From the NCBI GenBank assembly GCA_963663385.2, contig CAXXXD010000004.1:160001-224000 (forward strand): a DNA stretch of 64,000 bases, in the 5' to 3' direction. Origin of the DNA: Oceanispirochaeta sp. Lineage in GTDB: Bacteria > Spirochaetota > Spirochaetia > DSM-2461. Shown one piece after another: positions 22,344 through 39,993 of this stretch. The notes beneath the pieces were generated by a model. The model had not been told where the DNA came from, made no database searches, and was given only the letters and a program-made list of their open reading frames with translations. Made by a program: the position numbers and the translations under genes. Positions within the stretch are counted from its first letter, which is position 1, and every line of letters begins with the position of its first letter.

Positions 22344-24044
22344 CTAATTCGTAATAAACCTGTTAATCTCCTTGCTCAGAATCAGAACATTATCCCGGTT
22401 TTCCGCATTAAGGTTCATAACAGTTCCAATTCGCTGGTTGATGTTATTGGAACTCTCTTCGATCTCCTTGATATCCTTGCGGACCACTTCCGCTATGTCA
22501 TTGATTTTCTTCATGGAGTCTTTGATAATCTCTGTCCCTTCCAGCATTTCCACAGAACCCTTATCAACTTCTCCTGAAATATCCTGAAGGGTGCCTATCA
22601 TATGCAGAACATTGGAGCTGCCCAGAGCCATTTCAGACATGGAGCCGGAAATCTCTACGAACGCACTCGTTACTTCTTCAATTCCTTTCAGGATACTTTC
22701 AAAGGCTGATCTAGTGGCTTCGGCGGAATCCTGCAGCAGGGCCACCCGGTTGATGGACTCTTTCAGGGTGAGGTTTATCTGTTTGGCGTTGTCTGAAGTT
22801 GATTCGGCAAGATTCCGGATCTCCGATGCTACAACAGCGAAGCCCTTCCCGTATTCGCCGGCATGGGCTGCTTCAATAGCCGCATTCATGGAAAGCAGGT
22901 TGGTTTTGGAGGCGATAGCATTTATGACATTGACGACCTGAAGCATATTATCCACGTCACCGGCAATATTCTGAATAATGGCGTTGGTATTCTCCAGTTT
23001 TTCCCGCCCCTCTTCCGTTAACTTCACTACCTGATCTGTCGATTGAATCTTGTCCTCGGAAACCCTGCTGATATTGGTCACCGCAGAGGCAATCTCTTCA
23101 ATTCCGGCAGAACTCTCATGAATTGCCTCTGACTGTACCGCAATCTTGCTGTTTAAACCGTTAAGATTGGATAGAACCTGATCTATAGCTGCTGTGGAGT
23201 CGGAAATCCTGTTGTTCAGATGATCAAACTGTTCGCTTATGGATTTGATACTGCCGGTAATTTCTTCAACCTCCCGGACAGAATGGTCTACATGGGAATA
23301 GATCTCATCTCCTGTTTCGGCTGTTTTATTGAAGGATATTTTTAAGTCGGTGATGATATGATTCAACGACCCGGAAAAAATATTGAAAAAACGTGACAGT
23401 TGACCGATTTCATCATCAGACCGCACTGTCAGTACCTTCGTCAGGTCTCCCGCTCCTTCAGAAATATCTTTCAGTCCGGAACTAACGGTATAAAGGGGGT
23501 TGAGCACAAGAAAGTGTAAAACAATGACGGTAATCAGAATAAGCACAATCCCCAGGATAACTGATTGGACAATAACCGTTACCATTTCATCCAGTAAGCG
23601 GCTGCGAATCCCGGAATCCGTAACATAGGCTGTCAGTACGCCCAGGGGTTCGTCCTCCATTACAATTTTCATCGAATCCTTCAGGTAGTAATCCTCCGGA
23701 TCAAGCCCATGTTCATCCCAGGAAATGAACTCGGAAATCTCATCTGTTGCGGTTTTATATCTTCCCAGCAACAGATTGTCATTCTGATATATCAGAACCG
23801 TCTGAATATTCTCATCCTGCATCCCTTCCACGATCATGGATGCCATATTCTCTTCATTAAAATACCACAGGGGTTCGCTTAAGCTCTCAGAAAGCCGTAT
23901 GACTGATTCCCTGGTACACTGGGTAAGTTCAGACTCCAAACGGTTTTTATTAAAGGAATACGATATGAATGATGAGATGGACAGCAGGATGAATATGGAA
24001 AGAGACTGAACGATTACTATTTTAATTCTTAGATTAAATTTCAT
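22344..24044 (-). CDS. Methyl-accepting chemotaxis protein
   Basis: Two TM, HAMP (GDLT...DEIGQL), [34 protein letters not shown]. Confidence 0.95.
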
Positions 24045-24053
24045 ATGGGCCTA

Positions 24054-24803
24054 TTATTCAAAGAGTTCCGAATACCATTCGCCGGAATCCCAGTTCTCAA
24101 ATATGGCAAGCAGCTCCCCGCTTTTCATCATTTCATTTATACGGACATCCCATTTACCGGCCAGCTCCTTACCCCTTTGATTGCCCTGAAAGCACATATA
24201 CAGTTCAAGGTTCTTAATGCTTTCGATCGATACAATATCTGCATACTGGGGGAAATCCTCAATCATGCTCTCCAGTTCGCTGCAGGCGTCAAGGTAATAA
24301 TCCACTCTCCCGGCCTTCAGCATTTTCAATGCGGTCTCACGGTCATCCACCTCAAAAATCTTTATAGGCACATCAATGTACTCATCAAGTTCATAGCCGC
24401 GTATATAGGAACATCTTGTGTCTTTTAATCCGGGTTCACCGCCCCAGGAGGATGAATTCGCGGAAAGGAAGAGGGCGCTTACATCATCTGCATCGAAGAA
24501 TAAATCAGGATACGTCACTCCTTCGATCTCATCCGCATAAGATCCGACCATAACGTCAGCCTGTCCCTTCTGGATCAGGACCGTCGAACGGGCATAGGGG
24601 ACGATTTTGAAATTAACAGAAATCCCCTCTTTTTCAAATACAGCTCTTAAAATATCAAAATAGAGACCTGTCCCATCTGTATTCGTGGCATCTTCCCACT
24701 CTTCCGTTACAACCAGAATCTGATCGGTAGACTGTGCGGTCAGGATTGACGGCATTAAGATGCACAGGATCATGATACAGATCCATCCCGTTTTTCTTTT
24801 CAT
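24054..24803 (-). CDS. Family 3 solute-binding protein
   Basis: Signal peptide, GLYFDIL..F...GI, PYAR, IRGY, ML..GRVDY, G.L..IF..W. Confidence 0.8.
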   Translation of the reverse strand: MKRKTGWICIMILCILMPSILTAQSTDQILVVTEEWEDATNTDGTGLYFDILRAVFEKEGISVNFKIVPYARSTVLIQKGQADVMVGSYADEIEGVTYPDLFFDADDVSALFLSANSSSWGGEPGLKDTRCSYIRGYELDEYIDVPIKIFEVDDRETALKMLKAGRVDYYLDACSELESMIEDFPQYADIVSIESIKNLELYMCFQGNQRGKELAGKWDVRINEMMKSGELLAIFENWDSGEWYSELFE

Positions 24804-24984: not shown

Positions 24985-26589
24985 TTAACCATCCGCCATT
25001 CTGGCAAGCCTGAAACTGTAGGACGTACTGATTGAGGATGTTCCTACAAAAATTACATAACCGTTTCCTGCAGAGTAGGAAACAGAGTTGAAAGAGCCGC
25101 CTTTCAGTATCCGATCCGAGGTTGTCTCTCCATAGGACGCGGTAAATTCATAAGCATTTCCCCCCATATCATAGAGACCAAGAAGATTTTTGGTTTTCCC
25201 TTTGACCCTCTGTGTCGCACCTACAGAATTGTTGTACCAGGCAACCAGGTCCGTTGCGGTTGAATTGGAGGTTGTATCGGTTGCGCCGCTGGCATAATTG
25301 CCCGGATACCAGTACCTCCCGCTGCTGGCAGGGTATTCAACCGCTCCGTCCGCACTGTTCGCTCCCTTCCAGCGGGCGGCCAGTTCCCATTCGGGGGCGG
25401 TGGGCAGGCGGAACCCGTCCGAGGCGGCTTCTGTTGTCGGTGTCGTAACGCTTAAAGCGTTTCTCACAGGTGTTCCCCCATCTGTGTAAACACAGCTGTA
25501 AGTCGTATTCTGCCGGTCATTGTACCATTCGGTCAGGGCATTGCAGAAAATGACGGCATCTGCCCAGTAGACCCTTGTGACCGGTTTGGTTTCATCCCCA
25601 TTGGTGGAGGGGGCTGCATTGGCTATGCCGTCGCTTCCCTCTCTGCTGTCGGTGGTGCGGAATGTATAGGCCGGGGAGGCTGTATTTTCCGCCCAGTCCT
25701 TTACTGTATACCAGAGTTTGTAGGTCAGTTCCGTTTCGGCTATCCAGTAGGCACCGGTAACTGTTTCTTCTCCGTCCGGGTCGTCAATACCGGTATCCAG
25801 CAGATCGCCGTCGCCATTTCCATCTCCCGCATCATCCACTCCGGTGGGGAAAGCCAGTCCCCCCGGAACATAGACCAGGCTGAAACTGATCCCCGAGACT
25901 GAGAATATCTGCTGATCTCCGGGATCGTATACGTAATCGACCGTAACAGCGCAGGAGGCATTGTGACCACCGCTCACTGTCGTGACAGTTATCAGAGCGG
26001 TTCCTTCCGCCCCGGCTGTTACCAAGCCGTTTGAATTTACCGTAGCGACCGCTTCGTTGCTGCTGCTCCAGTTGACCGACTTGTCTGTGGCATCCGATGG
26101 GGACACTGTTGCCGTTAACTGCAGAGTTTCGCCGGCTCCTGTCAGGGTACTGGCGCTTTCATTCAATGTGACGCCCGTTACGGGGACTGCTTCTTCTTCT
26201 ACCGTAACATCGCAGGTTGCCGCATAGCCACCGTCGGTTGTGGTAACAGTAATCGTGGCTGTGCCTGTTGATTCCGCTGTTACCAAACCCTCTGAGTCGA
26301 CGGTTGTCACGGTCCCGTCGCTGCTGCTCCAGCTGACGGATGGATCTGTGGCTTCTGCCGGTGAAACTGTTGCTGTTAACTGAACTGTATTTCCGATTCC
26401 TGTTATTGTGAGTTCCGGAGTATTCAGAACCACTCCCGTAACACGGACTTCCGGGATTTCCTCTTCCTCGTAATTATCGGATTCGATTTTCTCTTCAATG
26501 AATTCAGTGACAGGGGAGTTTATCTCGCAGGACCAGAACAGACCGGACAGGAGAGACAGCAGTATAAGAATCTTTATTTCATCAGCCAT
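24985..26589 (-). CDS. Lipoprotein with two Big_2 Ig-like domains and a C-terminal FGE-sulfatase (C-type-lectin fold) domain
   Basis: Lipobox LFWSC; two V.VTGV.LN...QLTATVSP..ATD.SV.WSSS...VTV repeats; PVTRVYW.DA..FCN, GFRLPTAPEWELAAR, N.LGLYDMGGN, KGGSF, FRLAR. Confidence 0.88.
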   Translation of the reverse strand: MADEIKILILLSLLSGLFWSCEINSPVTEFIEEKIESDNYEEEEIPEVRVTGVVLNTPELTITGIGNTVQLTATVSPAEATDPSVSWSSSDGTVTTVDSEGLVTAESTGTATITVTTTDGGYAATCDVTVEEEAVPVTGVTLNESASTLTGAGETLQLTATVSPSDATDKSVNWSSSNEAVATVNSNGLVTAGAEGTALITVTTVSGGHNASCAVTVDYVYDPGDQQIFSVSGISFSLVYVPGGLAFPTGVDDAGDGNGDGDLLDTGIDDPDGEETVTGAYWIAETELTYKLWYTVKDWAENTASPAYTFRTTDSREGSDGIANAAPSTNGDETKPVTRVYWADAVIFCNALTEWYNDRQNTTYSCVYTDGGTPVRNALSVTTPTTEAASDGFRLPTAPEWELAARWKGANSADGAVEYPASSGRYWYPGNYASGATDTTSNSTATDLVAWYNNSVGATQRVKGKTKNLLGLYDMGGNAYEFTASYGETTSDRILKGGSFNSVSYSAGNGYVIFVGTSSISTSYSFRLARMADG

Positions 26590-28724
26590 TACTCGTCCTC
26601 CTCATCCCAGAGCACAATATCCTTCAGTCCTGTCGCGTCCGCTGCACGCTGGGACTCTTCGCCTCTCAGATCCAGATAGGCAAACCGCATGGCCAGATCG
26701 GGGTCCAGGGTTTTAAGAGCGGCATAACTGCTTTTAACGATTCCGTAATTTTCCAGCTCATGATTACACCGTGCCGAAGCCAGTAAGGCTGATTTGTTAT
26801 TACCGTTGATAAGCAGCGCTCTGTTGTAGAAGTCCAGAGCTGTAACATAGTTTTTAAGCACGAAGTAGATATTCCCGGCATTAATCAGGGCCGGAGGATA
26901 ACTATGCTCTGCGGCAATTGAATCGAAAATCTTCAGGGCTTTATCGTACAGTCCGTATCTGGCATAGAGAACGGCCAGGGAATTTTCCTGTTTATATGGG
27001 GTTTCGCTACTGGCAATCCGCTGTTGAATACGCGCCGCCTGAGGATAGATTTCCCGCTCTACATGCCTTTGGATACTGTTAAGAAAGGCGGTTTCCACCT
27101 CACTCCTGTCCGGAAGAAGCAGGTTTGAAGATCCTTCCCGGAATCCCACCGGCTGATAAGATCTCCATGCCTCTCTGGTCGGATAGATCCGGGCCTGTTT
27201 CCGGCTGTTGTGTTCCCTCCACTCTTTGGCGCCCGTATTCCATGCAGAATCGAATGTTTCCTGAAACATTGTAATTTCAACAGGAATCCAGACTTTGTCG
27301 GCCTGAAAGATCAGATTATCCGGTTGTGAGAAGCTCTTTCTGGCTTCATCGGGAGTCATTTCCAGAGCAAATGCGGCATAGATATGCCCGGGAACAGTTA
27401 TAACCGCCGTCTCTACCCCAATCGCTTCGAGAAGGGCCGTATACAAGGCAGAGAGGTCGTCGCAGTCTCCGTTTGTATACAGAAGGGTCTGTCTGGGAAA
27501 CTGAAGAAAATCTATGGATGTTACATCCTCCGAGTATTCAGTAAAGGGGGTGGACGGATCAATTTCATATCGTATTCCGTAGGCTTTGACGGCTTCGAAC
27601 AACGCAAGGCCCTTCTGGAAATTATCATCCACCGCAGGGTTTTTTATAGCCTGAATCCATGACATGACATTTTTGGCAAAACCAAGGATTTCCGGGTCCT
27701 TGGCCGTAATAAAGGAGGCTATTTTACGGTCATCATCCCAGGAAAGGGCATTCCTGTTATAGAACTCAACAACCGGATTGAGCTCTATGGAGGATGGGGT
27801 GTCATCCATCAGATAGGATATGGTTATCCTGGCAGAGGCTTTGGTCCCCTCTGTAATTTCCATCAGGTCTTCCGTAAAAAGTCCGAACAGGTCCACCTGC
27901 CTTTCTTCGCCGGGGTTTAACGAGAAGTTCTCACTGATGGCCATGGGATTATCCATATAGCGTTCGACAAAAAACTGTATGCTGATATTTTCTGCCGGGG
28001 TTTTGTCAGTATTGATAAGATTCAGGGAGCCGATCGGCATGGTATCGTAGTACTTGTACAGTACAGGGAAAATCGGATTAATTACCGTTTCCTCAACAAT
28101 AATCCCCTTACCCTTCTGCTTTAAAAGCTCGATACCAGGCTCCTCCTTTCGGGTTCTGACAGCCTTCTCCTGTTTCTGCACGGGGAATCCCACATCAAGG
28201 TAGATATCTATTCCAATTCCATTATACAGATTGAAATAGTAGTCATAGGATGGTCCTGCCCCAAGGGAAAACCGGTCATTCAACCTGATTAGAGCCGTCA
28301 GGCTCCCCCGCAGCATCAGGTCTCCTCCATTATTGTTCTCACCGCTCCAATCCATGGTATTCCATAGATAGTAACCGGCGCTGCCCTGAGCCAGAAGGGC
28401 GAGCTGCTGTGTAACCGGAACCTTAACGGCAGGTCCCCCGTATCCTGCCAGAACGCGTATGTAACCGGATGTCTCAACAGGCAGCAGGGCAACCCGGGCA
28501 CCGGCTCCTATACCCGGGAGGAGTGTTCTTTCGGGGATATAGGATGTGTTCGCATCAATAGCTCCGCCGAATTTGAAAAGATCACTGCTTGAACCGAGAG
28601 GCATAAGTCCGGAAGGGATAACCCTGGTTGAAAAAGTCCCTGCTTTTTCCGGCTCAGTGGTTTGGCTGTATAAATGGAAAACTGTAAATAGTGAAAGGAA
28701 TGATATAAATATTAGGAGTTTCAA
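26589..28724 (-). CDS. Outer-membrane beta-barrel / transglutaminase-like / TPR multidomain protein (paralog A)
   Basis: TTG start with TAAGGAGG RBS; signal peptide, about 160 aa of amphipathic beta-strands, FPVLYKYY, DFLQFP.QTL....GDCDDLS, PGHIY, WIPVEIT, C-terminal TPRs. Confidence 0.8.
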   Translation of the reverse strand: MKLLIFISFLSLFTVFHLYSQTTEPEKAGTFSTRVIPSGLMPLGSSSDLFKFGGAIDANTSYIPERTLLPGIGAGARVALLPVETSGYIRVLAGYGGPAVKVPVTQQLALLAQGSAGYYLWNTMDWSGENNNGGDLMLRGSLTALIRLNDRFSLGAGPSYDYYFNLYNGIGIDIYLDVGFPVQKQEKAVRTRKEEPGIELLKQKGKGIIVEETVINPIFPVLYKYYDTMPIGSLNLINTDKTPAENISIQFFVERYMDNPMAISENFSLNPGEERQVDLFGLFTEDLMEITEGTKASARITISYLMDDTPSSIELNPVVEFYNRNALSWDDDRKIASFITAKDPEILGFAKNVMSWIQAIKNPAVDDNFQKGLALFEAVKAYGIRYEIDPSTPFTEYSEDVTSIDFLQFPRQTLLYTNGDCDDLSALYTALLEAIGVETAVITVPGHIYAAFALEMTPDEARKSFSQPDNLIFQADKVWIPVEITMFQETFDSAWNTGAKEWREHNSRKQARIYPTREAWRSYQPVGFREGSSNLLLPDRSEVETAFLNSIQRHVEREIYPQAARIQQRIASSETPYKQENSLAVLYARYGLYDKALKIFDSIAAEHSYPPALINAGNIYFVLKNYVTALDFYNRALLINGNNKSALLASARCNHELENYGIVKSSYAALKTLDPDLAMRFAYLDLRGEESQRAADATGLKDIVLWDEEDE

Positions 28725-28971
28725 GGTGTCCTCCTTATCTGTTAATTATAAGAGATAGAAAGTGATATTTAAAGGAATAGCTGACGGATCAGATAAAACA
28801 TTCCCGTATAAAAATACAGTAATCCAATTCAATCTTTTTCGATTTTAGTGCTATAATCAAAATCTCAGCAATTATGCTGCAAAAATCTATGGATTTAATT
28901 GCAATAAATTTACCTTTTACCGGATTTACCTCATTTTATGTTTTTGGTAGAAGGAAAAAACGGAGAGGATA

Positions 28972-29985
28972 ATGAAAAAGATACTGAGCCTGTTGATTCT
29001 GGTTGTTTTTCTTTTCAGCGCATGTGCCAAAAAAGAAGACGGAGAGACTGCCAAAAAGAAAACCTATAGCTTTAACTATGCCGTTTTTTTTCCGGCAACC
29101 CATCTGCAGGCTAAAACAGCAGAAGCCTGGGCTAAAGAAGTGGAAGCCCGTTCTGAAGGTCAGATTCAAATCACCATGTTCCCCGGAGGAACCCTTTCCA
29201 AGGCGGCGCAGACCTACGAAGCTGTCGTTTCGGGAGTTGCCGATATGGGAATGAGTGTCTTTGCCTATACCAGGGGACGCTTCCCCCTTCTGGAAGGCCT
29301 GGACCTTCCCGTCGGTTACCCCGATGGCGTAAGGGCGACGAAAATTGCCAATGATCTGGTTAAAAAATATCAGCCCGAAGAACTTTCCGATGTACATGTC
29401 CTTTATCTTCACGCCCATGGCCCCGGTATCCTGGCCAGTAAAAAAGAGATCAGATCCGGTTCCGATATAGCCTCGCTCAAGGTGAGAGCAACCGGGCTAT
29501 CCGCCAAAATAGTGGAAGCCCTGAAGGGAACTCCCGTTTCCATGAGCCAGGGAGATACTTATGAATCCCTGCAGAAAGGCGTTGTGGATGCCACCTTCTG
29601 TCCCGTCGAAACCCTCAAGGGCTGGAAGCAGGGTGAAGTGATTGATTATGTGGTGGATACCAAATCCATCGGATACACGACATCCATGTTTGTTGTCATG
29701 AACAAGGATAAGTGGAACGCCCTCCCCGAAGATCTTCAGAATATCCTGACTGAAGTCAGCGAAGAGTGGGTTTATAAACAGGGGGCGGCCTGGGATGAGA
29801 GCGACAAACAGGGGGAAGCCTTTGTTAAAGAGCTGGGTAAAGAATTTATCAGTCTGAGCGATTCAGACAATGCCGTACTGGTAGATGCCATGGCTCCGGT
29901 CTATGCCGAGTATGTTGCCGCTGCCAAAGAGAAAGGTCTCCCCGGAGAAGAATTCCTGAATGATCTCAGAGAGATGCTCAAGTGA
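28972..29985 (+). CDS. dctP: TRAP transporter substrate-binding lipoprotein (DctP family)
   Basis: Lipobox [45 protein letters not shown]. Confidence 0.92.
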
Positions 29986-30464
29986 GATTCTTCGCCTCAG
30001 TCAGCCGTCTGATTATTCTGTTCGCCTATATGGCAGGGGGGGCAACCCTTCTGATGATGAGTGTGACCGTTCTGGATATTATCCTGAGGATTTTCGGTAT
30101 CGGGATAACCGGAGCCTACGATATGGTCAGAGCCTGCGGCGTTATTGCCGTTGCCTGCGCTCTGCCTTATGTTACCGCCACCAAAGGGCATATTGCTATT
30201 GAGTTCTTCTACCATAAATGCGGCAGAACAGGGCGTCTGGTTCTGGATCTGATATTCAGGGTTTCGGCTCTGGTCCTATTTGCCATTCTGACCTGGCAGA
30301 CCCTGCTTTACGGTGTTGCCCTGTTTGAAAGCGGGGAAGTCTTTCCCAATCTGGGGCTGCCTGTGTTCTGGATACCCTTTGTTATCAGTCTGAACTGCCT
30401 GCTTATGATGGTTGTTTTTGTTTACCATCTTATCCATCCCGGCAAGGAGTATATTAAAGCATGA
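29982..30464 (+). CDS. dctQ: TRAP transporter small permease (DctQ)
   Basis: Four TM, GHIAIEF motif; GTGA overlap with dctP. Confidence 0.88.
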
Positions 30465-31762
30465 GTCCTCTTCAAGTCGGAATCCTGGGATCCTTAATTC
30501 TGTTTACCCTGCTGTTTACCAGCATGCCCGTTGCCTTTGCCATGCTGGCTTCGGGGGTTATTGGTTTTGCCCTGATTGTCACCCCCCAGGCGGCATTCAG
30601 CATGGTTATCGCCGAGCTGTATGAAACTTTCAGCGCCTATAACCTCACTGTGATCCCCCTCTTTGTCATGATGGGACAGGTCTCTTTTCATGCGGGGATC
30701 AGCAGAAGACTGTTTCATACAACCTATGTATGGCTGGGGCATCTGAGAGGCGGACTGGCCATGGCTACTGTGGGAGCCTGTGCAGGTTTCGGGGCCATAT
30801 GCGGTTCCGGCCCTGCCACGGCGGCTACCATGGCTTCCGTGGCTCTTCCTGAAATGAAACGCTACGGTTATGCTGATTCCCTGGCTTCCGGATCTATTGC
30901 CGCCGGCGGCTCTCTGGGGATGCTGATTCCTCCCAGTGTGGTCTTTATTGTTTACGCCCTGATGACGGAGCAGTCCATCGGCAGCCTCTTTCTGGCGGGG
31001 ATTGTCCCCGGTCTGCTGATTGTCCTGCTGTTCTGCCTGAACATTTTTTTCCGGTGCAGCCGGGATGAAACCCTTGGTCCCGCCGGTCCGAAACATGGCT
31101 GGAAGGAGCGTTTTCTCTCTTTAAACGGGATTCTGGAAACACTCATTCTGTTTATTCTTGTAATGGGCGGTATGTTTCTCGGGTTCTTTACTCCCATTGA
31201 GGCGGCGGCTGTCGGAGCTGCCGGAAGTTTTCTGGTTGCGGGTGTACAGAGAAAGCTGAGTTTTGACAAACTCAAGCGTATTCTCCTTGAGACAGTCCGG
31301 ACCTCCTGCATGATCTTCTTTATCGTGGCCGGAGCGACGGTGTTCGGCCGGTTTCTGGCTATCTCCCGTATCCCTTTTGCCGTAGCCGAGGGGTTTATAT
31401 CCCTGCCTCTGCCCGGCGAAGTTGTGATGATGCTTATTATCCTCTTTTTTCTGGTGGCCGGCTGTTTTATCGATGCCCTGGCTCTGATGCTGCTGACTAT
31501 CCCGATCTTTTTTCCGGTTGTGCAGCAGCTGGGGTTTGATCCCGTCTGGTTCGGGGTTATTGTTGTTGTTATCACACAGATGGGTGTTATTACTCCCCCT
31601 GTGGGTGTTAATGTTTATGTGGTGAGCGGGATTGAGAGAGATATTCCTCTGCCCGTAATCTTTAAAGGGTCCCTGCCGTTTCTCTGGATGCTGGTTCTGG
31701 CGGCTCTGATCCTGATTGCCGTCCCGGAGCTCTGTCTGGTGCTGCCCCGTATTTTTCATTAA
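30461..31762 (+). CDS. dctM: TRAP transporter large permease (DctM)
   Basis: IPLFVMMG, GGSLGMLIPPS, TP.EAA, ITPPVGVN. Confidence 0.95.
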   Translation: MSPLQVGILGSLILFTLLFTSMPVAFAMLASGVIGFALIVTPQAAFSMVIAELYETFSAYNLTVIPLFVMMGQVSFHAGISRRLFHTTYVWLGHLRGGLAMATVGACAGFGAICGSGPATAATMASVALPEMKRYGYADSLASGSIAAGGSLGMLIPPSVVFIVYALMTEQSIGSLFLAGIVPGLLIVLLFCLNIFFRCSRDETLGPAGPKHGWKERFLSLNGILETLILFILVMGGMFLGFFTPIEAAAVGAAGSFLVAGVQRKLSFDKLKRILLETVRTSCMIFFIVAGATVFGRFLAISRIPFAVAEGFISLPLPGEVVMMLIILFFLVAGCFIDALALMLLTIPIFFPVVQQLGFDPVWFGVIVVVITQMGVITPPVGVNVYVVSGIERDIPLPVIFKGSLPFLWMLVLAALILIAVPELCLVLPRIFH

Positions 31763-31795
31763 TTAGGACCCGAAAATGTTTGAAGGAGGCCTTTG

Positions 31796-32251
31796 ATGCC
31801 GCATAAGAATCTGTTTAAAAAAATCATGTTCTGTACCGACTTTAACAGCGATGCCCTGAAGGCCTTTTACTATGCCCTGAATGTTGCCGAAGGAAACCCC
31901 GGGAGCGAGCTGATTATCTACCATGTGATACCCGAGCCGGAAGCCCAGTTCTGGAAATCCTACATCTACGAAGTGGATAATGTGGATGAAAAAGCGAGGC
32001 AGGATATTGATAAGGTGATCAGAGAAACCTATCTGGATAAACTGCCTGAGGGTTTGAACTGTACCGTGCGGACCACCATCGGCAATGTAGGCAGCGAGAT
32101 CCTGGCGTATTCCAGAAAGGAGAATGTTGATCTGATCGTGATCGGCCGGGGCGCCGGATCAAATATGATTAACCGCCTGCTGGGGGACTTTATCAAGAAA
32201 CTGATCCATAAAAGCCACTGCCCCGTACTGGTCATACCGGAAGAAAGCTGA
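31796..32251 (+). CDS. Universal stress protein (UspA family)
   Basis: KKIMFCTDF, DLIVIG, LLG...K....CPVLVIP; GGAGG RBS. Confidence 0.9.
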   Translation: MPHKNLFKKIMFCTDFNSDALKAFYYALNVAEGNPGSELIIYHVIPEPEAQFWKSYIYEVDNVDEKARQDIDKVIRETYLDKLPEGLNCTVRTTIGNVGSEILAYSRKENVDLIVIGRGAGSNMINRLLGDFIKKLIHKSHCPVLVIPEES

Positions 32252-32278
32252 GTTTGAGGAATCCGGAGTCCATTGCCT

Positions 32279-33706
32279 TCAGTCTCCGGCTTTCCAGGGG
32301 TGCAGCTTTTTACGGACAGCTTTATCTTCGTACATTCTGCTGTCTGCTGCGGAAAGCAGGCTTTTATAATCCGTTCCATCTGTCTGGTAATGGGATATTC
32401 CGAAACTGAATTTACAGGAAAGGGATCTCCCTTCAAAGTGGAATGGCTGATTTTCAATCAGACTCCGTTGTTTTTCGATACGGGTTTTACATCTGTTGTC
32501 TTTTCCGAAGCATACAGCAATAAATTCATCTCCTCCGAATCGGGCAAATATATCAGATGATCGGAACATGCCGCTCATTTTTCCGGCAAAGTGGAGCAGC
32601 ATTTCATCACCGGCACTGTGGCTATAGGTATCGTTAATTTTTTTTAAATCGTTCAGATCAAAAAGCACCAGACAGAAACTATCTTTATAGCGTTCGGATC
32701 TTTTTAAAATCAGTTCCAGAATACTCTCAAAATAACGGCGGTTGTATAGATTTGTCAGTTTGTCATGTTCGGATTCGTAGGTGGTCCTTTCAAAATTTTT
32801 GAACATGCTTATGGCGATGGGGATCTGGGACCGGACGCACTCCATCAGGGCTCTGTCCGTATCATCGAAAATGTTATTTTTCCAGCTGTCCAGGTTAAAC
32901 AGGCCGTACAGGGAACCGTTAATCAGGAGAGGAGCGCTCATGGTTGATCGGATCGTTCTCCCTTTGTTGTCAGTAAGGAGAGTATCGGGCATATTGTGTT
33001 TTTCCAGAAAATTCTGAAGGTCGTTAATTATCAGGGTTTCCTTCGGTTCACTATTGGCTTCTTTCCAGTGAAATGTATCTTCCACCTTAATCCGGAAATC
33101 TCCTGTTTCAGCAGGAGGATAACCCCTGGAGGAGGCAATTCTCAGTTGACGGTTTTCATCCAGCAGGAGAACACAGCCTATGACGGCATGGTCAACAGCA
33201 GAGAGTACTTTTTCCAGGATAAGGGAGAATAGTTCATCCTGATTGTTAAGTTCCTGTATGGAGTTGTTGATGGACAGAATCGCATCCTTCAGACGCATGA
33301 CCCTGTCGGCGCTTCTTTCCTTATCGCTTTTCAGCCCCATATCGGATATTGTCCCGGTAGTACCGATAATCGCACCGTCACTATTGGCTGCGGATGTAAT
33401 ATTCAACTGGAAGAACTCGTCATGTCCCCTTTTTTTTAAGGTAAAAGACTGACGGGAACTCCCCTCCATCCTGCTTATTTCATTATCAGCCCGCTTAAAT
33501 GCCTTTTCCGGAGAACCGGAGCAGATATCAGAAATAAGACGACCGGTGATTTCCTCTTTTGAGAGATCAAAAAGGGCGCAGAACTCATCATTGCAGAGGG
33601 ATATCCGAAAATCCCGGTCTCTGAAAAATGCGGGGATGGGTGATGCTTCCATAAAGGCATCCAGTATGGCTTGCGTATCCGCAGCGGACAGGTTTTTTTT
33701 CATCAC
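32279..33706 (-). CDS. PAS-GAF-GGDEF diguanylate cyclase
   Basis: HDKLTNLYNRRYF, FDLNDLK.IND.YSH.AGD, RSSD I-site, RFGGDEF, ADSRMY. Confidence 0.93.
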   Translation of the reverse strand: MMKKNLSAADTQAILDAFMEASPIPAFFRDRDFRISLCNDEFCALFDLSKEEITGRLISDICSGSPEKAFKRADNEISRMEGSSRQSFTLKKRGHDEFFQLNITSAANSDGAIIGTTGTISDMGLKSDKERSADRVMRLKDAILSINNSIQELNNQDELFSLILEKVLSAVDHAVIGCVLLLDENRQLRIASSRGYPPAETGDFRIKVEDTFHWKEANSEPKETLIINDLQNFLEKHNMPDTLLTDNKGRTIRSTMSAPLLINGSLYGLFNLDSWKNNIFDDTDRALMECVRSQIPIAISMFKNFERTTYESEHDKLTNLYNRRYFESILELILKRSERYKDSFCLVLFDLNDLKKINDTYSHSAGDEMLLHFAGKMSGMFRSSDIFARFGGDEFIAVCFGKDNRCKTRIEKQRSLIENQPFHFEGRSLSCKFSFGISHYQTDGTDYKSLLSAADSRMYEDKAVRKKLHPWKAGD

Positions 33707-33901
33707 TATCAGTTTAATGGATTTTAATCTGTTAATCGAGAAATTTTTGATTATAGGGCAGATGGAGAACTGGATAATATTTCTGTTGACAGGATTCCGT
33801 CTATTCCATTTATTATAATTTGTTTTGAAGTATCCTTAATACATCTCCGAATGAAAGGACTCTCTGAAATGAAAATCATGATTTTCTCCTCTATCCTGTA
33901 G

Positions 33902-35248
33902 TCACTCCCCCGGAATCAAATCGATAACATAGAAGGTTCCCGGTTCGGTATAGTCCAGGCCGTAGGCGTAGTTCCCTTCAATAGAGAAAATATTGAGACC
34001 TTCCGAAATTGATGAATATAGAACAGGTCTTGCCGGATCCGAGATATCCACAAAATCGGATGCACCGGTGCTGTAGTTGCTGACATACAGATACTTTCCG
34101 ACAATTCCGCCGACTGTGGTTCCGCCCCCATTATCAAAGGTGCTGACAACAGAAAGAGAGGATGGGTCTGTCAGATCAACGAATCTGACCGGACCATTCA
34201 GATCGGAGACACAGGCATAGTTTTGATATATTTGAATAAAACCGCTGAGCATCCCGGGAATTTCCAGAAAATCACCGCCGTCTCCTACAAGATTAATCGC
34301 ACCTAATCCGGGATCTACACCAGTCCCGCCTCCCGGTTGGGTATAAAGCAGAAGATTTCCGGAAACAGCAATATCAAAACCGTCATCTGTGATAGCTCTT
34401 ACATAATCCAGAGACGGATTCTCAGGATCTGATATATCAAACTGCCCAATAACATGACTGTCACCGTCACCGGTATCCTTTCTTAAGGGAGCATATAGAG
34501 AACTGCCGTGAAAAGCGAAGGCATGGGAGCCCGCTTTGTAAGTGTTTCCACCATATGAAAGATCGGCTGAAGCGATTTCCAGAGGAGAGGCACAGTTGGA
34601 GATGTCGTAGACTTTAAACTGCTTGGGATTAAGCGTATCTGTTACATCCAGAACATAAAGATAGTTCCCTGAAACGGCAAGATCATGGCTGGTTTCAATC
34701 CCGGTGATAGACCCGGCAAGAACGGGATTTGTTTTGTCGGATATATCGACTATGGTTACACCGTTTTCAATCCTTGCCAGAAATGCATAATCCTCTTTTA
34801 ACTGTATTCTGTATCCGCCCCCTCCGACGTCAAGAGAACCTATAACCTGGGGATCGGTAGAAGGAATGATTTCAAAACTCCGGGCCTCACTCCAGGGACC
34901 GGCTTCGCTGTCCTTTAACGCCCGCACCCGCCAGTACTTCTGATCACTGATAGTCAGGGCTTCCGGATACTCATACCCGGACTCGGATACCGTGATAATA
35001 TCAGCTCCGTCCAGCTGATCTTCCGCTTCTGCAATCTGAACTTCATAACTTGTTGCCCCCCCGGAATCTTCCCAGTCCAGAAGAGGAGTCTTTTCCGCAA
35101 TCTCAGCTTCGTCTGCCGGTGATATAAGGGTTACTGATCGGGTCCATCCCAGAACCATTTCGTCTATTGTGTCCTTCAGGCCGATGGGGTCGCAGGAGAG
35201 GATAAGTACAAGTGGAAATAACATAAAGACTTTCTTTTTCAAAATCAT
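33902..35248 (-). CDS. Lipoprotein with FN3/Ig-like domain and LVIVD-repeat beta-propeller (copy 3)
   Basis: Lipobox LILSC; TPLLDWED...YEVQI...YWRVRA...W; repeated IVDISD.TNP / VYDISN.ASP / FVDLTDP units; exact start within a few codons. Confidence 0.85.
   Translation of the reverse strand: MILKKKVFMLFPLVLILSCDPIGLKDTIDEMVLGWTRSVTLISPADEAEIAEKTPLLDWEDSGGATSYEVQIAEAEDQLDGADIITVSESGYEYPEALTISDQKYWRVRALKDSEAGPWSEARSFEIIPSTDPQVIGSLDVGGGGYRIQLKEDYAFLARIENGVTIVDISDKTNPVLAGSITGIETSHDLAVSGNYLYVLDVTDTLNPKQFKVYDISNCASPLEIASADLSYGGNTYKAGSHAFAFHGSSLYAPLRKDTGDGDSHVIGQFDISDPENPSLDYVRAITDDGFDIAVSGNLLLYTQPGGGTGVDPGLGAINLVGDGGDFLEIPGMLSGFIQIYQNYACVSDLNGPVRFVDLTDPSSLSVVSTFDNGGGTTVGGIVGKYLYVSNYSTGASDFVDISDPARPVLYSSISEGLNIFSIEGNYAYGLDYTEPGTFYVIDLIPGE
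35139..35170. repeat. 32-bp repeat, copy in lipoprotein gene 3
   Basis: CGGGTCCATCCCAGAACCATTTCGTCTATTGT; identical at 36466-36497, one mismatch at 37797-37828. Confidence 0.9.
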
Positions 35249-35264
35249 CTCCTTTGTTCAGATA

Positions 35265-36569
35265 TCAGTCTCCCGGAATCAGATCTACTACATGCAGTTT
35301 CCCTGTGGAATACTCTGTCCCGTAAAGATAGTTCCCGCTTACCGCATTTACTGAGATAACGGCCTCTTCTGCAGGGATGGTTCCCCACTCTTCAGGAGAT
35401 TCAGGGTCGGTAAGATCCAGGATCAGAACGCTGCCGTTAAACAGGGAAACAAAGGCAAAACGGTCCGCTATTGAGATATTGTTCCCTCCTGCAGAAAGAG
35501 GATAGGCTGCCGCTGAAACAGGATTGGTCACATCTTCGATATCAAAAATTTCAATAGAATTAACATTCATACTCGTGGCATACGCATAGTGGTCATATAC
35601 GGTCACCATACTGTTATCCCAATCGGTCTGGAAATCTGCGGCAGTGCTGCCCACCTCGACATTCCCGTTCATCTGGAGAATCCGGATACCAGTATCATCA
35701 ACCGTGTATACCAGGTAACTCCCGTAGGTATCAAAAGAGTTAACCCTTTTCCCCAATCCGGCAGGATCAATCATTTCGGGAGCAGAATCAAACGCGGAAA
35801 GGATATTGTCAAATCGATAATAACCGTTCCAGCATCCCGCATATAAGCTGGTTCCCCCGTAGAACAGCCCGTACCACTGGTTGTTTATTCCATAAGAATC
35901 CTTTACAGCAACACTGGAAGGATCTGAAATGTCCAGAATATAAACATAATATGGACTGGTTTCGGCAAAACTTTCCGAGACGTAGGCATAATTCCCGGAG
36001 ATATTGATATCCCATACACCGTTTGCAGTGGAGACCGTGTCTATAAGCTCCGGAGCAGAAGGAGAGGTTATGTTAAAAACTTTAATGCCGTTATCTCCTG
36101 CTGACGCATAAAGATAATTTCCCGACACTTCCAGTCCCCAGGCATGTACCCCCAGATCAAGAGTATTGACCAGTTCAGGGCTTGCAGAAGGAACAATCTT
36201 AAAGGTGCGGATATCACTCCAGTCCCCTGTTGATCCGTCGGCAACCGCTCTGACCCGCCAGTACCGTTCGGAACCGAGAGTCAGTTCATCGGGGATTTCA
36301 TACTGCGACTCTGTTACTTCAATTGAAGTAGTGCTTTCAAGCTGATCTTCAGCTCTGACAATCTGAACTTCATAACCTGTTGCTCCCCCGGCGTCCTCCC
36401 AGTCCAGCAGCGGGGTTTTATCTGCTATTCCTTCACCGTCATCCGGAGAGACTACGCTTACCTCCCGGGTCCATCCCAGAACCATTTCGTCTATTGTCTC
36501 CTTTAAGGCGATGTCTTTACAAGAGAAAATCAAAATCAGCGGTAATAGAATCAAAACAGTTCTTTTCAT
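35265..36569 (-). CDS. Lipoprotein with FN3/Ig-like domain and LVIVD-repeat beta-propeller (copy 2)
   Basis: Lipobox LIFSC; same N-terminal module as copies 1 and 3; SGNYAYV, ILDISDP, IFDIEDVTNP repeats. Confidence 0.85.
   Translation of the reverse strand: MKRTVLILLPLILIFSCKDIALKETIDEMVLGWTREVSVVSPDDGEGIADKTPLLDWEDAGGATGYEVQIVRAEDQLESTTSIEVTESQYEIPDELTLGSERYWRVRAVADGSTGDWSDIRTFKIVPSASPELVNTLDLGVHAWGLEVSGNYLYASAGDNGIKVFNITSPSAPELIDTVSTANGVWDINISGNYAYVSESFAETSPYYVYILDISDPSSVAVKDSYGINNQWYGLFYGGTSLYAGCWNGYYRFDNILSAFDSAPEMIDPAGLGKRVNSFDTYGSYLVYTVDDTGIRILQMNGNVEVGSTAADFQTDWDNSMVTVYDHYAYATSMNVNSIEIFDIEDVTNPVSAAAYPLSAGGNNISIADRFAFVSLFNGSVLILDLTDPESPEEWGTIPAEEAVISVNAVSGNYLYGTEYSTGKLHVVDLIPGD
36457..36501. 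repeat. 45-bp repeat, copy in lipoprotein gene 2
   Basis: 44/45 identical to 37788-37832. Confidence 0.9.
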
Positions 36570-36589
36570 AATCTACTCCCGGGGTTCCC

Positions 36590-37900
36590 TTAAGGTAATA
36601 AATCCGTAATAACCAGTTTTCCCTTATAGTAATCCACTCCGTAGGCATAATTCCCAATAATTTCACTGATCGGCAGATCTTCTTTTGTTGTATACAGGGT
36701 AGGATTTGTAATGTCTGAAATATCAATAATGCGAAGTTTTTTATCAGGATCTGTTGTTGTAAAAAGGTAGTCCCGATAGACAGCAACCCAGGCTGTAGCC
36801 ATTTCGGGATTATACTCACTTACGTAAGTCAGATTTGAAGGATCAGCTATATCCAGGATAATCAGAGGATGACTGGCATTCAGGCCGTCTGAAACAAACA
36901 GATAGTGGTCAGAAACAGCTGTAAACGCTTCTCCCTGATTGTTAATGGGATAATAATCCAATTGATCCACTTCTCCGAAAAAACTACAGGAGAAAACTCC
37001 TGCATTTGTTGTTACAAAACCGTACCCGCCGCTTAACTCCATATACCATAACGGATCGGTATCTGGAGTGATTTTCTGAAAAACCGGATTCCCGGGGGAT
37101 GCGGGATCCGATATAAGAATTCTTAAAATACCCCATTCTGAACTGTCACCCTGGACTGCAATGTATATGTTATCTCCAAAAAGGACACTGTCCTCAGGAT
37201 CATAATTAACAGAACCTGCCGTCAAAGAACAGGAACTGACAAGTTCGGGAGAAGAGGGATTGGAAATGTCATAAATCTCCAATTGATTATCCATGTCGTT
37301 ATCAACCTGCAGCATATAGAGATACTGATCTTCAACGGATAAATCCTCTACCTTTTTTTCAATCGTTTTCACAAGAACAGGAGCTGAAGGATCTGAAATA
37401 TCAACGATTTTTACACCGACTGAGTCACAGTAGGGAATATAAGCATAATCCCCTTGAATTTCCATTTTATAGGGATTCCCGCCTATATCGAGTTCCCCCA
37501 GCAGAGCAGGGGTATCGGATATAATGATTTTAAAACTGCGGGTTTCACCCCATTCTCCGGCCTCGTCATCCTTTACAGCTCGTACCCGCCAGTAGCGGGT
37601 ATCGCAGATAATCAGTTCGTCTGGTATCTCATACTCCGATTCGGTAGTTTCAATGATCTCTGCTTCTGCGAAATGGTCGATGGATTCAACAATCTGCAGT
37701 TCATACCCGGAGGCTCCTCCCGCATCTTCCCAGTCCAACATGGGTGTTTTTTCAGTCAGCCCGGCATTATCCTTAGGAGAGAGAACACTTACCTCCCGGG
37801 TCCATCCCAGGACCATTTCGTCTATTGTCTCCCTGAGGCTGATGTCATCGCAGGAGAGAATGATTCCAGCCAGAAGAAGCAGGAATATCCCCTTTTTCAT
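36590..37900 (-). CDS. Lipoprotein with FN3/Ig-like domain and LVIVD-repeat beta-propeller (copy 1)
   Basis: Lipobox IILSC; IVDISDPSAP, IYDISNPSSP, ILDIADPSN, IIDISDITNP repeats; ATGA overlap with the upstream gene. Confidence 0.85.
   Translation of the reverse strand: MKKGIFLLLLAGIILSCDDISLRETIDEMVLGWTREVSVLSPKDNAGLTEKTPMLDWEDAGGASGYELQIVESIDHFAEAEIIETTESEYEIPDELIICDTRYWRVRAVKDDEAGEWGETRSFKIIISDTPALLGELDIGGNPYKMEIQGDYAYIPYCDSVGVKIVDISDPSAPVLVKTIEKKVEDLSVEDQYLYMLQVDNDMDNQLEIYDISNPSSPELVSSCSLTAGSVNYDPEDSVLFGDNIYIAVQGDSSEWGILRILISDPASPGNPVFQKITPDTDPLWYMELSGGYGFVTTNAGVFSCSFFGEVDQLDYYPINNQGEAFTAVSDHYLFVSDGLNASHPLIILDIADPSNLTYVSEYNPEMATAWVAVYRDYLFTTTDPDKKLRIIDISDITNPTLYTTKEDLPISEIIGNYAYGVDYYKGKLVITDLLP
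37788..37832. repeat. 45-bp repeat, copy in lipoprotein gene 1
   Basis: 44/45 identical to 36457-36501. Confidence 0.9.
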
Positions 37901-39993
37901 TCCCCGTCCTCCCAGGGCATCATGCTTGTAAAGCGTTCACTGTCCGAGGCCCTGGTCGTTCCGGCATCCTGCATTTCCAGGTAGGAGTACTCTTCCGCCA
38001 GCAACGGATCAAGATCTTTCAGCTGTCCGTAGGCATCCGCGACCTTGTCGTACTCTTCAATCTGATAGCAGGCCCGGGCGATTCCCAGAAGAACTTTGGG
38101 GGAATCCGGTTTGATCCGGTTCACCTGATTGTAGTAATCAAGAGCTTCCGCATAATCTTCGTTCAGGAAATTAATATTGCCGAGATTGACAAGCGAGGGG
38201 AGGAAGTTATTAGAGCTGACCGCTTTTTTAAACTGCTCTTCCGCCTCATCCTTATAGCCGTAGCGGGCATATAAAACGCCCAGCTTATTGTAGTTCCTGG
38301 GATGCGGATCTTCCTCTATCTTCTTTTTCAGAGCTTCAATCTGCGGACGGAGTTCCCTGTCTATAAAAAGGGCATACTCTTTATTGAATGATTCAGTAAC
38401 TTTTTCCGGGTCCGGCATGGTGATATCAGCCTGAGCAATATCAAACCCAACAGGCTTGTACTGTTCCCATGCCTGGTGGGTGGGATAGAATCCGGCTTTC
38501 AGTTTTGCCGCATTTTCCCGCCATTCCTTTGCTCCGATCTGCCAGGCTTTCAGAAACCCGCCCTCGATTTCGGTGATTTCCACGGGGATCCAGGATTTAT
38601 CTTCCATAAAGATCAGATCTTCAGGTCTGGTAAACTGTTTTTCCGCCTCTTTCTGGGTAATCCCCAGAGAAAAAGCCATAAAGATGTGACCAGGTGTAGT
38701 AACAAAGGCGGTTTCCACACCTACCGCTTCCAGAAGGGCGCAGTTCAGAATGGACAGATCATCGCAGTCTCCGGCTTTGTACTCCAGGCTCTGCATGGGG
38801 AACTGGAGAAAGTCCACGGCTCCGGTGTTACCGGCCAGTTCCGAATAGGGGGTGGCCGGATCGATAACGTAGGCCATCCCGTGCTCCCGGAGGGCTGCAT
38901 TGATACCCATGGCCAGAGCCAGATTTCTGTTTACCCCGGAATCTGTATTATCCTTAACAATTCCCGCGGTATTCTTGGCGAACTTCAGAACCACCGAATC
39001 CTTCGCGGTTACAAAAGCGGCGACACGCCGGTCATCGTCCCAGGTAATGGCGTTTCTGTTCTGAATCTCCTGGGTTTCGACCCGCTCTCTTATATAGCTG
39101 TCGTTATTATAGGTATATTTGATACTGATCTGGGCGGAGACCTTGCTGCCTTCGGAAACTTCCAGGATACTGTTGGTAAACAGTCCGTAAAGGCTGATTT
39201 CCATCTCTTCTCCCGGTTCCAGGGTTGTCGGGGCAGTGCATGTTTTCGGGTTGTCCATATACTGTTTCACGTAGTATGTAACCTCTATATCCTTGATTTT
39301 TTTCTTTTCATGATTCCTGAGAACCGCCGTACCGACCGGATTGTCATCGTAGTAGCTGAAAAAAACGGGAAAGACACTATCCAGGTCGACTTTCAGCAGA
39401 TCGAGTCCCTTTCCGGGTTTGTGCTGCAGAACACCGCCCGTTCCGCCTCCCTTTTGGGAGGGGATTATATTGAAAATAAGTCCGGCGTTAACAAACACCT
39501 GGCTTTCCAGGCCCAGATACTGCCGGTAACCCGCGTCAACCCCAACGCCGAATCGGGAGGAGAACAGCACATAGGCTCCCAGGCCGCCTCCTGCATAGGG
39601 GTAGCCGCCCGAATCATCGCCGTTATGCAGAAACCCGTAATAGTAACCGCCCGAACCGAAGGCCCGGATACTCAGAGTCGGTATGGGATTGAGTTCTAGT
39701 CCGAGGCCGGCGCCGAATGCCATTAGGGAGAGTTCCGTAATGTCTGTTCTCAGGGGAACGTAGTTATATCCCACATCCACGCTTGTATACAGGGCCGGAA
39801 AAAAGGGCATGGAAATCTCTCCGGAGATGTTCCCCCCGTAGTTCAGTTCAAACAGGTCCGAATCCTCACCCATCGGAATGTTTGCCCCGGGAGCTACTTT
39901 CAGAGTCAGCAGTGAATTGAATAAACTCTGTGTGAATACAGGGGTTGCAATAACCACCAGGAACAACAGGAAAAAAAGGTCTCTTCTGCGCAT
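37897..39993 (-). CDS. Outer-membrane beta-barrel / transglutaminase-like / TPR multidomain protein (paralog B)
   Basis: Start at ATG 39993 (GGAGG RBS; MRRRDLFF signal peptide); Gly/aromatic beta-strand region; FPVFFSYY, DFLQFP.QSL....GDCDDLS, PGHIF, WIPVEIT; TPRs (YNKLGVLYARYG, NLGNI). Confidence 0.8.
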   Translation of the reverse strand: MRRRDLFFLLFLVVIATPVFTQSLFNSLLTLKVAPGANIPMGEDSDLFELNYGGNISGEISMPFFPALYTSVDVGYNYVPLRTDITELSLMAFGAGLGLELNPIPTLSIRAFGSGGYYYGFLHNGDDSGGYPYAGGGLGAYVLFSSRFGVGVDAGYRQYLGLESQVFVNAGLIFNIIPSQKGGGTGGVLQHKPGKGLDLLKVDLDSVFPVFFSYYDDNPVGTAVLRNHEKKKIKDIEVTYYVKQYMDNPKTCTAPTTLEPGEEMEISLYGLFTNSILEVSEGSKVSAQISIKYTYNNDSYIRERVETQEIQNRNAITWDDDRRVAAFVTAKDSVVLKFAKNTAGIVKDNTDSGVNRNLALAMGINAALREHGMAYVIDPATPYSELAGNTGAVDFLQFPMQSLEYKAGDCDDLSILNCALLEAVGVETAFVTTPGHIFMAFSLGITQKEAEKQFTRPEDLIFMEDKSWIPVEITEIEGGFLKAWQIGAKEWRENAAKLKAGFYPTHQAWEQYKPVGFDIAQADITMPDPEKVTESFNKEYALFIDRELRPQIEALKKKIEEDPHPRNYNKLGVLYARYGYKDEAEEQFKKAVSSNNFLPSLVNLGNINFLNEDYAEALDYYNQVNRIKPDSPKVLLGIARACYQIEEYDKVADAYGQLKDLDPLLAEEYSYLEMQDAGTTRASDSERFTSMMPWEDGE

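Follow-up and report, generated by a model that had tools for sequence, protein, structure and literature searches.

Why does the gene of a putative outer-membrane enzyme run directly into a lipoprotein gene at two nearby loci, with lipoproteins of unrelated folds? The question is raised by a window of 64,000 nucleotides from Oceanispirochaeta sp. (contig CAXXXD010000004.1, positions 160,001 to 224,000; the window is the whole stretch analysed, and coordinates count from its first letter), in which two paralogous genes on the reverse strand encode paralogue A (711 aa, 26589..28724) and paralogue B (698 aa, 37897..39993). As stated in the first-pass annotation, both open reading frames (ORFs) are present and share one architecture; alignment of the two proteins over 725 columns gives 35% identity (E 3e-155). 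The results described below reveal a real and widespread two-component envelope system, marked by the architecture of the enzyme-bearing protein, by the coupling of its gene to that of a lipoprotein, by a short tag common to the otherwise dissimilar lipoproteins, and by the association of this tag with the barrel rather than with the active site.

Architecture of the barrel-enzyme protein

The ATG at 39993, with GGAGG upstream, was used as the start of paralogue B instead of 40113, where the longest ORF call begins; paralogue A starts with TTG, preceded by AGGAGG. As modelled by AlphaFold from 51 sequences (mean pLDDT 88.9), B has, after its signal peptide, eight antiparallel, amphipathic strands (aa 29–176, 39466..39909; all parts on the reverse strand), whose fold matches (Legionella T4SS porin III, Z 18.5; NspA, Z 18.0; OmpW, Z 16.9; OprF, Z 16.6) predict an outer-membrane barrel of the OmpA/NspA type, in keeping with the earlier estimate of about eight strands, too few for a protein pore. 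Pro40 is almost invariant at the first strand. A disordered linker leads to an Ig-like beta-sandwich (aa 197–310, 39064..39405; model), followed by a transglutaminase-like core (aa 321–511, 38461..39033) with D409-C410-D411-D412, H436 and E472, by a long helix and a tetratricopeptide repeat (TPR) superhelix (aa 529–668, 37990..38409; Pfam and model), and by a conserved tail, R681-A682...W694-E-D (37900..37953), defined by sequence and conservation counts. Paralogue A has the same order of parts (signal peptide, predicted eight-stranded barrel, Ig-like domain, core with C421, H447 and E483, TPRs and an R693-A...W706 tail); the barrel profile matches it at E 1e-33, and Pfam finds TPRs and a weak Transglut_core. 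The motifs originally quoted (RNA..WDDDR, DFLQFP..GDCDDLS, PGHI, WIPVEIT and W-[DE]-[DE]) all occur in both proteins.

The core modelled alone (pLDDT 93.6) matches BDI_1141 (Z 10.6), LapG (Z 8.9 over 142 residues), PNGase (Z 8.8) and also TG2; these Z values are moderate, but Pfam finds Transglut_core in 95 of 100 core sequences, at E 9e-7 for the best, with the window proteins below the curated cut-off. In the model of B, DSSP assigns a helix from residue 410, with Cys410 at its start, and strands at 436–442 and 466–471, and covariation couples the His436 strand with the Glu472 strand (441–469, 439–471). The arrangement typical of transglutaminase-like enzymes, namely Cys at a helix start and His and an acid on adjacent strands of a papain-like core, is thus seen in the model, and Cys410-His436-Glu472 is the predicted triad, as the first-pass annotation had proposed from the motifs. 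The three residues are invariant in 100 of 100 aligned cores, an alignment that excludes the dead forms (those without the catalytic motif). Conserved aspartates ring the active site, an environment that would be compatible with calcium, as in DvhG, and with a basic residue in the substrate. Peptidase_C93 was not among the Pfam matches, LapG was matched in sequence only at E 0.6, and a sequence search of the PDB gave TPR matches only, plus sub-threshold matches to LapG and transglutaminases. The Ig-like domain and core, which together resemble the N-terminus of the anti-phage helicase ProA, align over aa 224–500 with positions 16–297 of the ProA model NF058533 (E 7e-13, about 15% of the model), far below its cut-off (43–47 bits against 1500 bits for the full-length DUF4011 helicase).

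Coupled lipoproteins share a tag that follows the barrel

The stop codon of A overlaps the start of its partner (TAATG at 26589), and that of B overlaps the start of its first partner (ATGA, 37897–37900), exactly as first read. The tail W-E/D codons at the same time provide the GGAGG ribosome site for the partner gene (37900–37920; 26589–26612); barrel-less homologues without a coupled gene keep the tail, which must therefore be more than a by-product of coupling. The partner of A (534 aa, lipobox Cys21, 24985..26589, reverse strand) carries a tag, consisting of the lipid Cys and an acidic amphipathic helix at residues +1 to +18 (26476..26529), then an acidic linker, two Big_2 domains and an FGE/C-type-lectin-like domain. 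Paralogue B precedes three lipoproteins on the same strand: the first (436 aa, Cys17, 36590..37900) has a tag helix (37799–37852), an FN3-like domain and an LVIVD propeller, and the second (434 aa, 35265..36569) and third (448 aa, 33902..35248) have near-identical tags (36468–36521 and 35141–35194) and divergent propellers. Identity to the first is 72% over the first 36 mature residues and 36% over the whole protein for the second, and 64% and 42%, respectively, for the third. The claim of unrelated partner modules at the two loci holds for the Big_2–FGE and LVIVD parts, whereas the FN3/Ig-like N-terminal domain of the B partners has only a weak Pfam score, in two of the three. An 820-aa probable lipoprotein divergent from B (40254–42716, forward strand) contains FN3 domains and a large C-terminal part without a Pfam or NCBIfam match; it lacks the tag and was left out of the partner count.

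The first-pass annotation had described the system as present twice, but nine full-length paralogues occur in the genome, and none is more than two genes away from a lipoprotein gene. In seven cases the lipoprotein gene comes immediately after, in one (contig C3) immediately before, and in the ninth it lies two genes upstream, separated by the gene of a small secreted TPR protein. Non-duplicate homologues were counted where the next gene was visible, and contig-edge rows, cores <250 aa, four unclear and four N-terminally cut cases were set aside. Of the 147 barrel forms counted in this way, 129 have a same-strand lipobox gene within two genes and 114 have it at +1, compared with 714 (16%) and 217 of this genome's 4403 genes, so that the preference for lipoprotein neighbours is far greater than expected by chance; the lipobox rule was devised for this analysis and overlooks some partners. 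A further 17 homologues were retrieved later; the next gene is visible in 16 of them, of which 13 have a lipobox gene at plus or minus 1, 12 with a tag score of at least 5. The 114 pairs are tightly coupled: 67 overlap, 51 of them at exactly -1 or -4, and 104 lie within 20 nt. Lipoprotein neighbours, barrel fold and catalytic triad, the points on which the original proposal could be contradicted by computation, were hence all recovered, the latter two as predictions.

The partners differ in fold (Big_2/5/13, LVIVD, FG-GAP, BspA-LRR, InlB-repeat, Lcl_C and FGE domains) and in length (median 610 aa, up to 1950 aa; 26 of 94 complete partners >1000 aa), but have a common start, C-x-[ND]-P-L-L-[DE]-x-I-x-x-[ED]-V. 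Compared with 267 other lipobox proteins, the tag has a median helical moment of 0.46 against 0.21 and a charge of -3 against -1, and a joint test of both is passed by 55% of the 114 partners and 3% of the others. With a matrix trained without this genome, its 11 partners rank 1, 2, 3, 5, 6, 7, 8, 12, 15, 31 and 32 of 279, the partner of A being rank 1; with the genus left out of training, nine of the 11 stay in the top 23. A tag profile gave eight matches at E<=0.012 in five whole genomes (three of which had supplied training loci), all adjoining family barrels, and none below E 0.29 in five barrel-less genomes. Two strongly tagged lipoproteins of this genome have no adjacent barrel gene (C2:1195093 and C4:650837; L211:5094-8024 and L212:5838-8858) and may possibly be clients in trans. 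Complex prediction of mature B with a 36-residue tag scored 0.01 with the controls not folded, a result of no weight either way, and when the 3' ends of the two lectin-type partners were searched for the template of a diversity-generating retroelement, only self-hits were obtained.

The module of Ig-like domain, core, TPRs and tail is elsewhere fused to WD40, laminin G, PorV/PorQ-type barrel, NHL-like and other domains, which allows the contributions of barrel and active site to be separated. The 20 homologues with another N-terminal domain include 19 with an intact catalytic motif, but only three have any lipobox neighbour, all with negative tag scores, and none is tagged. Conversely, 16 of the 147 barrel forms lack the catalytic motif, and 10 of these have a lipoprotein nearby; most belong to tandem pairs of a dead and a live copy, but the single dead copies L041, L064 and L080 (which are kin) and L258 precede tagged partners. 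Since dead single copies keep tagged partners and active barrel-less forms have none, pairing follows the barrel and not the active site. Homologues with three (L093:7082-10096) or two (L147:6872-9601) tandem barrels still precede a tagged lipoprotein. In the tandem dead and live copies (L173-L180, L192, L053, L087 and L254), which suggest heterodimers, the live copy often has extra C-terminal domains or is TPR-less (about 530 aa). Forms with the core fused to PorV/PorQ-family barrels (L196, L197, L199, L203 and L205) have no tagged lipoprotein, and some adjoin Big_5/FlgD-Ig proteins; in one subfamily (L119, L142, L160 and L167), a secreted protein of 1050–1180 aa with a C-terminal small barrel (and PKD domains in L160) is encoded two genes downstream.

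The named loci in the genome-collection scan are almost all from Spirochaetota, where the core is present in 54 of 401 genomes with a patchy distribution (15 of 17 in one family; 0 of 75, 0 of 38 and 0 of 8 in others, zeros that mean not found in the genomes searched and do not prove absence). It forms 1848 clusters at 50% identity (E<=1e-30), with as many as nine copies in one genome, and most members are annotated as no more than a TPR or hypothetical protein. Non-spirochaete members are found in Atlas clusters headed by Calditrichota and Ignavibacteriota, suggesting that barrel-plus-core proteins occur in Calditrichota too. Searches of plasmids with the core and of PADLOC gave no match, and the RNA search listed no RNA holder. 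Around the two operons lie a cytoplasmic PAS-GAF-GGDEF diguanylate cyclase (32279–33706, reverse strand), 196 bp downstream of the three lipoprotein genes and not a recurring neighbour, and genes for a solute-binding protein and a methyl-accepting chemotaxis protein (22344–24803), which follow the partner of A on the same strand. About 7 kb from the operon of one paralogue, an adenylate/guanylate cyclase, a 922-aa FecR protein and a LIC11435-like barrel protein are encoded (L213:5782-11873, contig C4). Promoter evidence was not used: each operon has a 10/12 site upstream (-28773, -40159), but such sites number 28 overall, close to the count in shuffles (25.7).

A proposed barrel clamp and its alternatives

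What the enzyme acts on may be sought in its own tail. In active sequences, Arg681 is kept in 358 of 388 and Trp694 in 361 of 388; the tail Arg motif occurs in 100 of the 124 barrel forms that are active, in 12 of 21 forms without the barrel and in one of four dead full-length forms, and of two further dead copies L258 lost it and L254 kept it. Tail covariation is not decisive, giving weak pairs with the TPRs (V651–S690, z 5.5, rank 32) and none for the near-invariant Arg. Small secreted TPR proteins, presumably FecR-like although Pfam gave only TPRs there, directly adjoin a family gene in 18 of 21 profile-detected loci (10 being profile seeds), and all 10 aligned ones contain an internal [VI]-[RK]-[GA] motif, followed in eight by W and acidic residues. 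In the 114 partner N-termini (first 60 mature residues), by contrast, [TAP]AAG and R[AG][AS] each occur in only two, and the tags are not enriched in Gln (51 of 114, against 144 of 279 lipobox proteins) or Lys (79 of 114 against 179 of 279). We infer that the conserved candidate substrate or ligand is the Arg-Ala motif of the enzyme's own tail and not the lipoprotein, and that cleavage would occur after Arg. Of the earlier idea of an outer-membrane-anchored enzyme acting on dedicated lipoproteins, the barrel and the lipoprotein link thus stand, but the part in which the enzyme sorts, cross-links or releases the lipoprotein is weakened, as none of the 20 barrel-less forms has a tagged neighbour, single dead copies keep their partners, and the partners have no LapG site or conserved Gln or Lys.

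In the predicted mechanism, the barrel would grip the acidic amphipathic helix beside the lipid anchor of the translationally coupled lipoprotein in a 1:1 complex, and it is indeed rather likely that the barrel recognises its partner's tag. The clamped lipoprotein would be held probably at the cell surface, a location suggested by the domain types and size of the partners, after it had crossed the outer membrane on a general pathway, either BAM co-assembly or Lpt, and not via the family barrel. An even-stranded OmpA-type barrel ends in the periplasm, so the Ig-like, enzyme and TPR domains would sit there. The D-C-D-D motif may bind calcium as in LapG and DvhG, and the enzyme would have as its ligand the R-A...W-acidic tag, present in its own tail and inside the neighbouring small secreted TPR proteins, which would be either cut or held as a latch; the outcome of such a cut (signal, turnover or complex release) is a guess. 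To this full model, a 1:1 barrel clamp of the tag helix combined with a periplasmic LapG-like protease acting on the Arg-Ala tag, we assign a probability of roughly one half.

Several observations weigh against this model. In the predicted topology the barrel has acidic outer loops (mean -0.5 to -1.1) and slightly basic periplasmic turns, so that an acidic helix would fit the inner face better, and RcsF binds the periplasmic domain of OmpA, not its barrel, in the account of PMC7553776. Eighteen of the 147 barrel forms have no lipobox neighbour; some are misses of the rule or contig-end tandem pairs, but L102, L187 and L209 look real. The dead copy L086 has no partner. No barrel-only family member, which would bear on whether the barrel suffices, was found among the short matches inspected (L190, L083 and L158, from 150 listed matches), these being broken or gapped genes. 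The genomes are kin, so that the counts overstate independence, although the barrel-less class spans several different fusions. Under genus-out training two partners fall to ranks 89 and 130. The dead copies L087 and L254 retain the tail Arg, and in the stand-alone TP0733-type pairs described below, the partner helix is less amphipathic (median 0.30), and BB0028 has been modelled as a periplasmic BamB, on POTRA domains (PMC4377024).

Four other explanations were weighed against the clamp. Shedding as by LapG, with the helix targeting the protease and the lipoprotein being cut near its anchor to release an adhesin, would account for the LapG fold match, the calcium-type D-C-D motif and the adhesin-like partners, and LapG substrates do carry a targeting helix (PMC13090378); it is nevertheless unlikely, since no conserved scissile motif follows the helix, dead single copies keep their partners while active barrel-less forms have none, the annotated recurring neighbour clusters include no LapD-like receptor, and a surface-anchored tether would be out of reach of a periplasmic enzyme. 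A complex facing the periplasm, in which an inner-leaflet lipoprotein would contact the barrel from its periplasmic side, or else the Ig and TPR domains, as a scaffold or sensor, like OmpA–RcsF or BB0027/BB0028, would suit the loop charges, the POTRA-based model of BB0028 and the RcsF–OmpA precedent (PMC4377024, PMC7553776). We consider it a rather poor candidate, because the partners above 1000 aa have lectin, propeller or LRR ends typical of surface proteins, and because the Ig-like domain and TPRs persist in partner-less barrel-less forms, so that any periplasmic site would have to be on the barrel.

It is improbable that the barrel is a dedicated Slam-like exporter whose oligomers flip the cognate lipoprotein over the outer membrane with the helix as export signal: eight strands are not 14, the domain order is opposite, the partners lack the common fold of Slam cargo, and the operons mostly hold one barrel gene per partner, suiting a stoichiometric complex. 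Even so, the adjacency exceeds that reported for Slam (185 of 353; PMC5449769), acidic N-terminal export signals are known in Bacteroides (PMC13692018), the two- and three-barrel fusions and the tandem dead and live pairs hint at oligomers, and the near-invariant Pro40 at the first strand also counts in favour. Covalent anchoring, in which a transglutaminase, transpeptidase or acyltransferase would link the lipoprotein to peptidoglycan, lipid or itself, agrees with the Transglut_core matches and with the fold match to TG2, and is very improbable in view of the tags, which are not enriched in Gln and Lys. Moreover, the Ig-like domain and core also head the helicase ProA, a cytoplasmic protein, pointing to a protein rather than a cell-wall substrate.

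The barrel clamp may extend beyond this family. A stand-alone barrel of the TP0733 family, found in 74 of 81 genomes of the class, is related to the family barrel by profile–profile comparison only (HHalign probability 96%, E 2e-9, a comparison with no control barrel family); the barrel of B (39460–39918) has no NCBIfam match at E<=0.05, including NF047328 of the TP0733 family. In 30 of 30 top loci a lipoprotein gene directly follows, with a start like C-x(2-5)-[IL]-F-x-x-[IL]-E-x-E. The underlying pattern (hydrophobic-hydrophobic-x-x-hydrophobic-E-x-E) is found in 18 of 30 TP0733-type partners, a partly circular count because the partner-picking filter used part of the pattern, in 30 of the 114 family partners and in two of the 267 other lipobox proteins. 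In this genome, such a barrel precedes a 407-aa lipoprotein (L224:265-2151, contig C3), which from gene order would be the BB0028 orthologue, next to a divergent gene that we take to be folD-like. DUF2715 barrels, tried as further stand-alone partners, were not supportive (three of 121 genomes, four loci, lipobox neighbours with low tag scores). The TP0733/BB0027 data support barrel–lipoprotein pairing and not surface exposure. A wider reading, which we regard as speculative and doubtful, is that spirochaetes use a general barrel clamp for lipoprotein display, of which the near-universal TP0733/BB0027 pair is ancestral, and that free-living lineages fused to it an Arg-specific protease of the periplasm with its own tail as a latch. 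The product would be a modular receptor spanning the envelope, whose exchangeable lectin or propeller lipoproteins at the surface would turn on proteolysis in the periplasm. The routes by which spirochaete lipoproteins reach the surface and are retained there are unsettled, the LptD model for Borrelia being called controversial (PMC13692018). With its many natural pairs, short transferable tag and clean variants (dead, barrel-less and multi-barrel), the family makes a barrel-docking route directly testable, and it points to an additional role for the TP0733/BB0027 barrels, which are currently modelled as channels for small molecules (PMC4377024, PMC8407342).

Comparison with known systems

The system is worth comparing with those that resemble it in part. 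ProA (Prometheus anti-phage helicase) has a similar module of Ig-like and transglutaminase-like domains, and the family has no helicase. The export signal of Bacteroidota lipoproteins is likewise an acidic motif right after the lipid cysteine, but according to PMC13692018 it is general and read by an Lpt-linked pathway, whereas the present tag is an amphipathic helix of greater length and is restricted to a small set of lipoproteins encoded next to cognate barrels. OmpA also combines an eight-stranded barrel with a C-terminal periplasmic domain and forms a complex with a lipoprotein, RcsF (PMC7553776); the two are not co-encoded, and OmpA has no protease domain. In the TP0733/BB0027 pair (bb0027 adjoins bb0028 in Borrelia; PMC4377024), an eight-stranded spirochaete barrel is again followed by a lipoprotein, but the pair is single-copy, with one partner type and neither enzyme nor TPR.

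The closest comparisons are with LapG/LapA, DvhG/DvhA and Slam. The former resemble the family in having a transglutaminase-like Cys protease fold (periplasmic, as predicted for the family), acidic residues on either side of the Cys and a genetic link to large adhesin-like proteins, and DvhG needs D316-C317-E318 and calcium (PMC13090378), a motif that D-C-D-D resembles. However, the third triad residue of the family is Glu where bacterial transglutaminase-like cysteine proteases (BTLCP) have C-H-D, its enzyme is fused to barrel, Ig-like domain and TPRs, its partner is a lipoprotein where theirs is an adhesin exported by type I secretion, the [T/A/P]AAG site is lacking, and pairing survives catalytic loss; no genes for a LapD-type receptor or type I secretion were recognised from sequence in the 32 largest neighbour clusters, some of them annotated. 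Slam, too, is a barrel-plus-TPR protein encoded beside lipoproteins, but has N-terminal TPRs, a C-terminal 14-stranded DUF560 barrel and cargo with an eight-stranded soluble barrel (PMC5449769). In clear contrast, the family has an N-terminal eight-stranded barrel, C-terminal TPRs, an enzyme domain and partners alike only in their N-terminal helix; Pfam scans of the window partners and other partner lipoproteins gave no TbpB-like eight-stranded barrel domain, and no DUF560 match was found. A description of a barrel-enzyme protein with a tagged lipoprotein was not found in the open-access literature (subscription papers and supplements lay outside the search), in agreement with the first-pass statement that no characterised system has such an architecture. 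Altogether, the system is partly Slam-like and partly LapG-like, but departs from the defining features of both.

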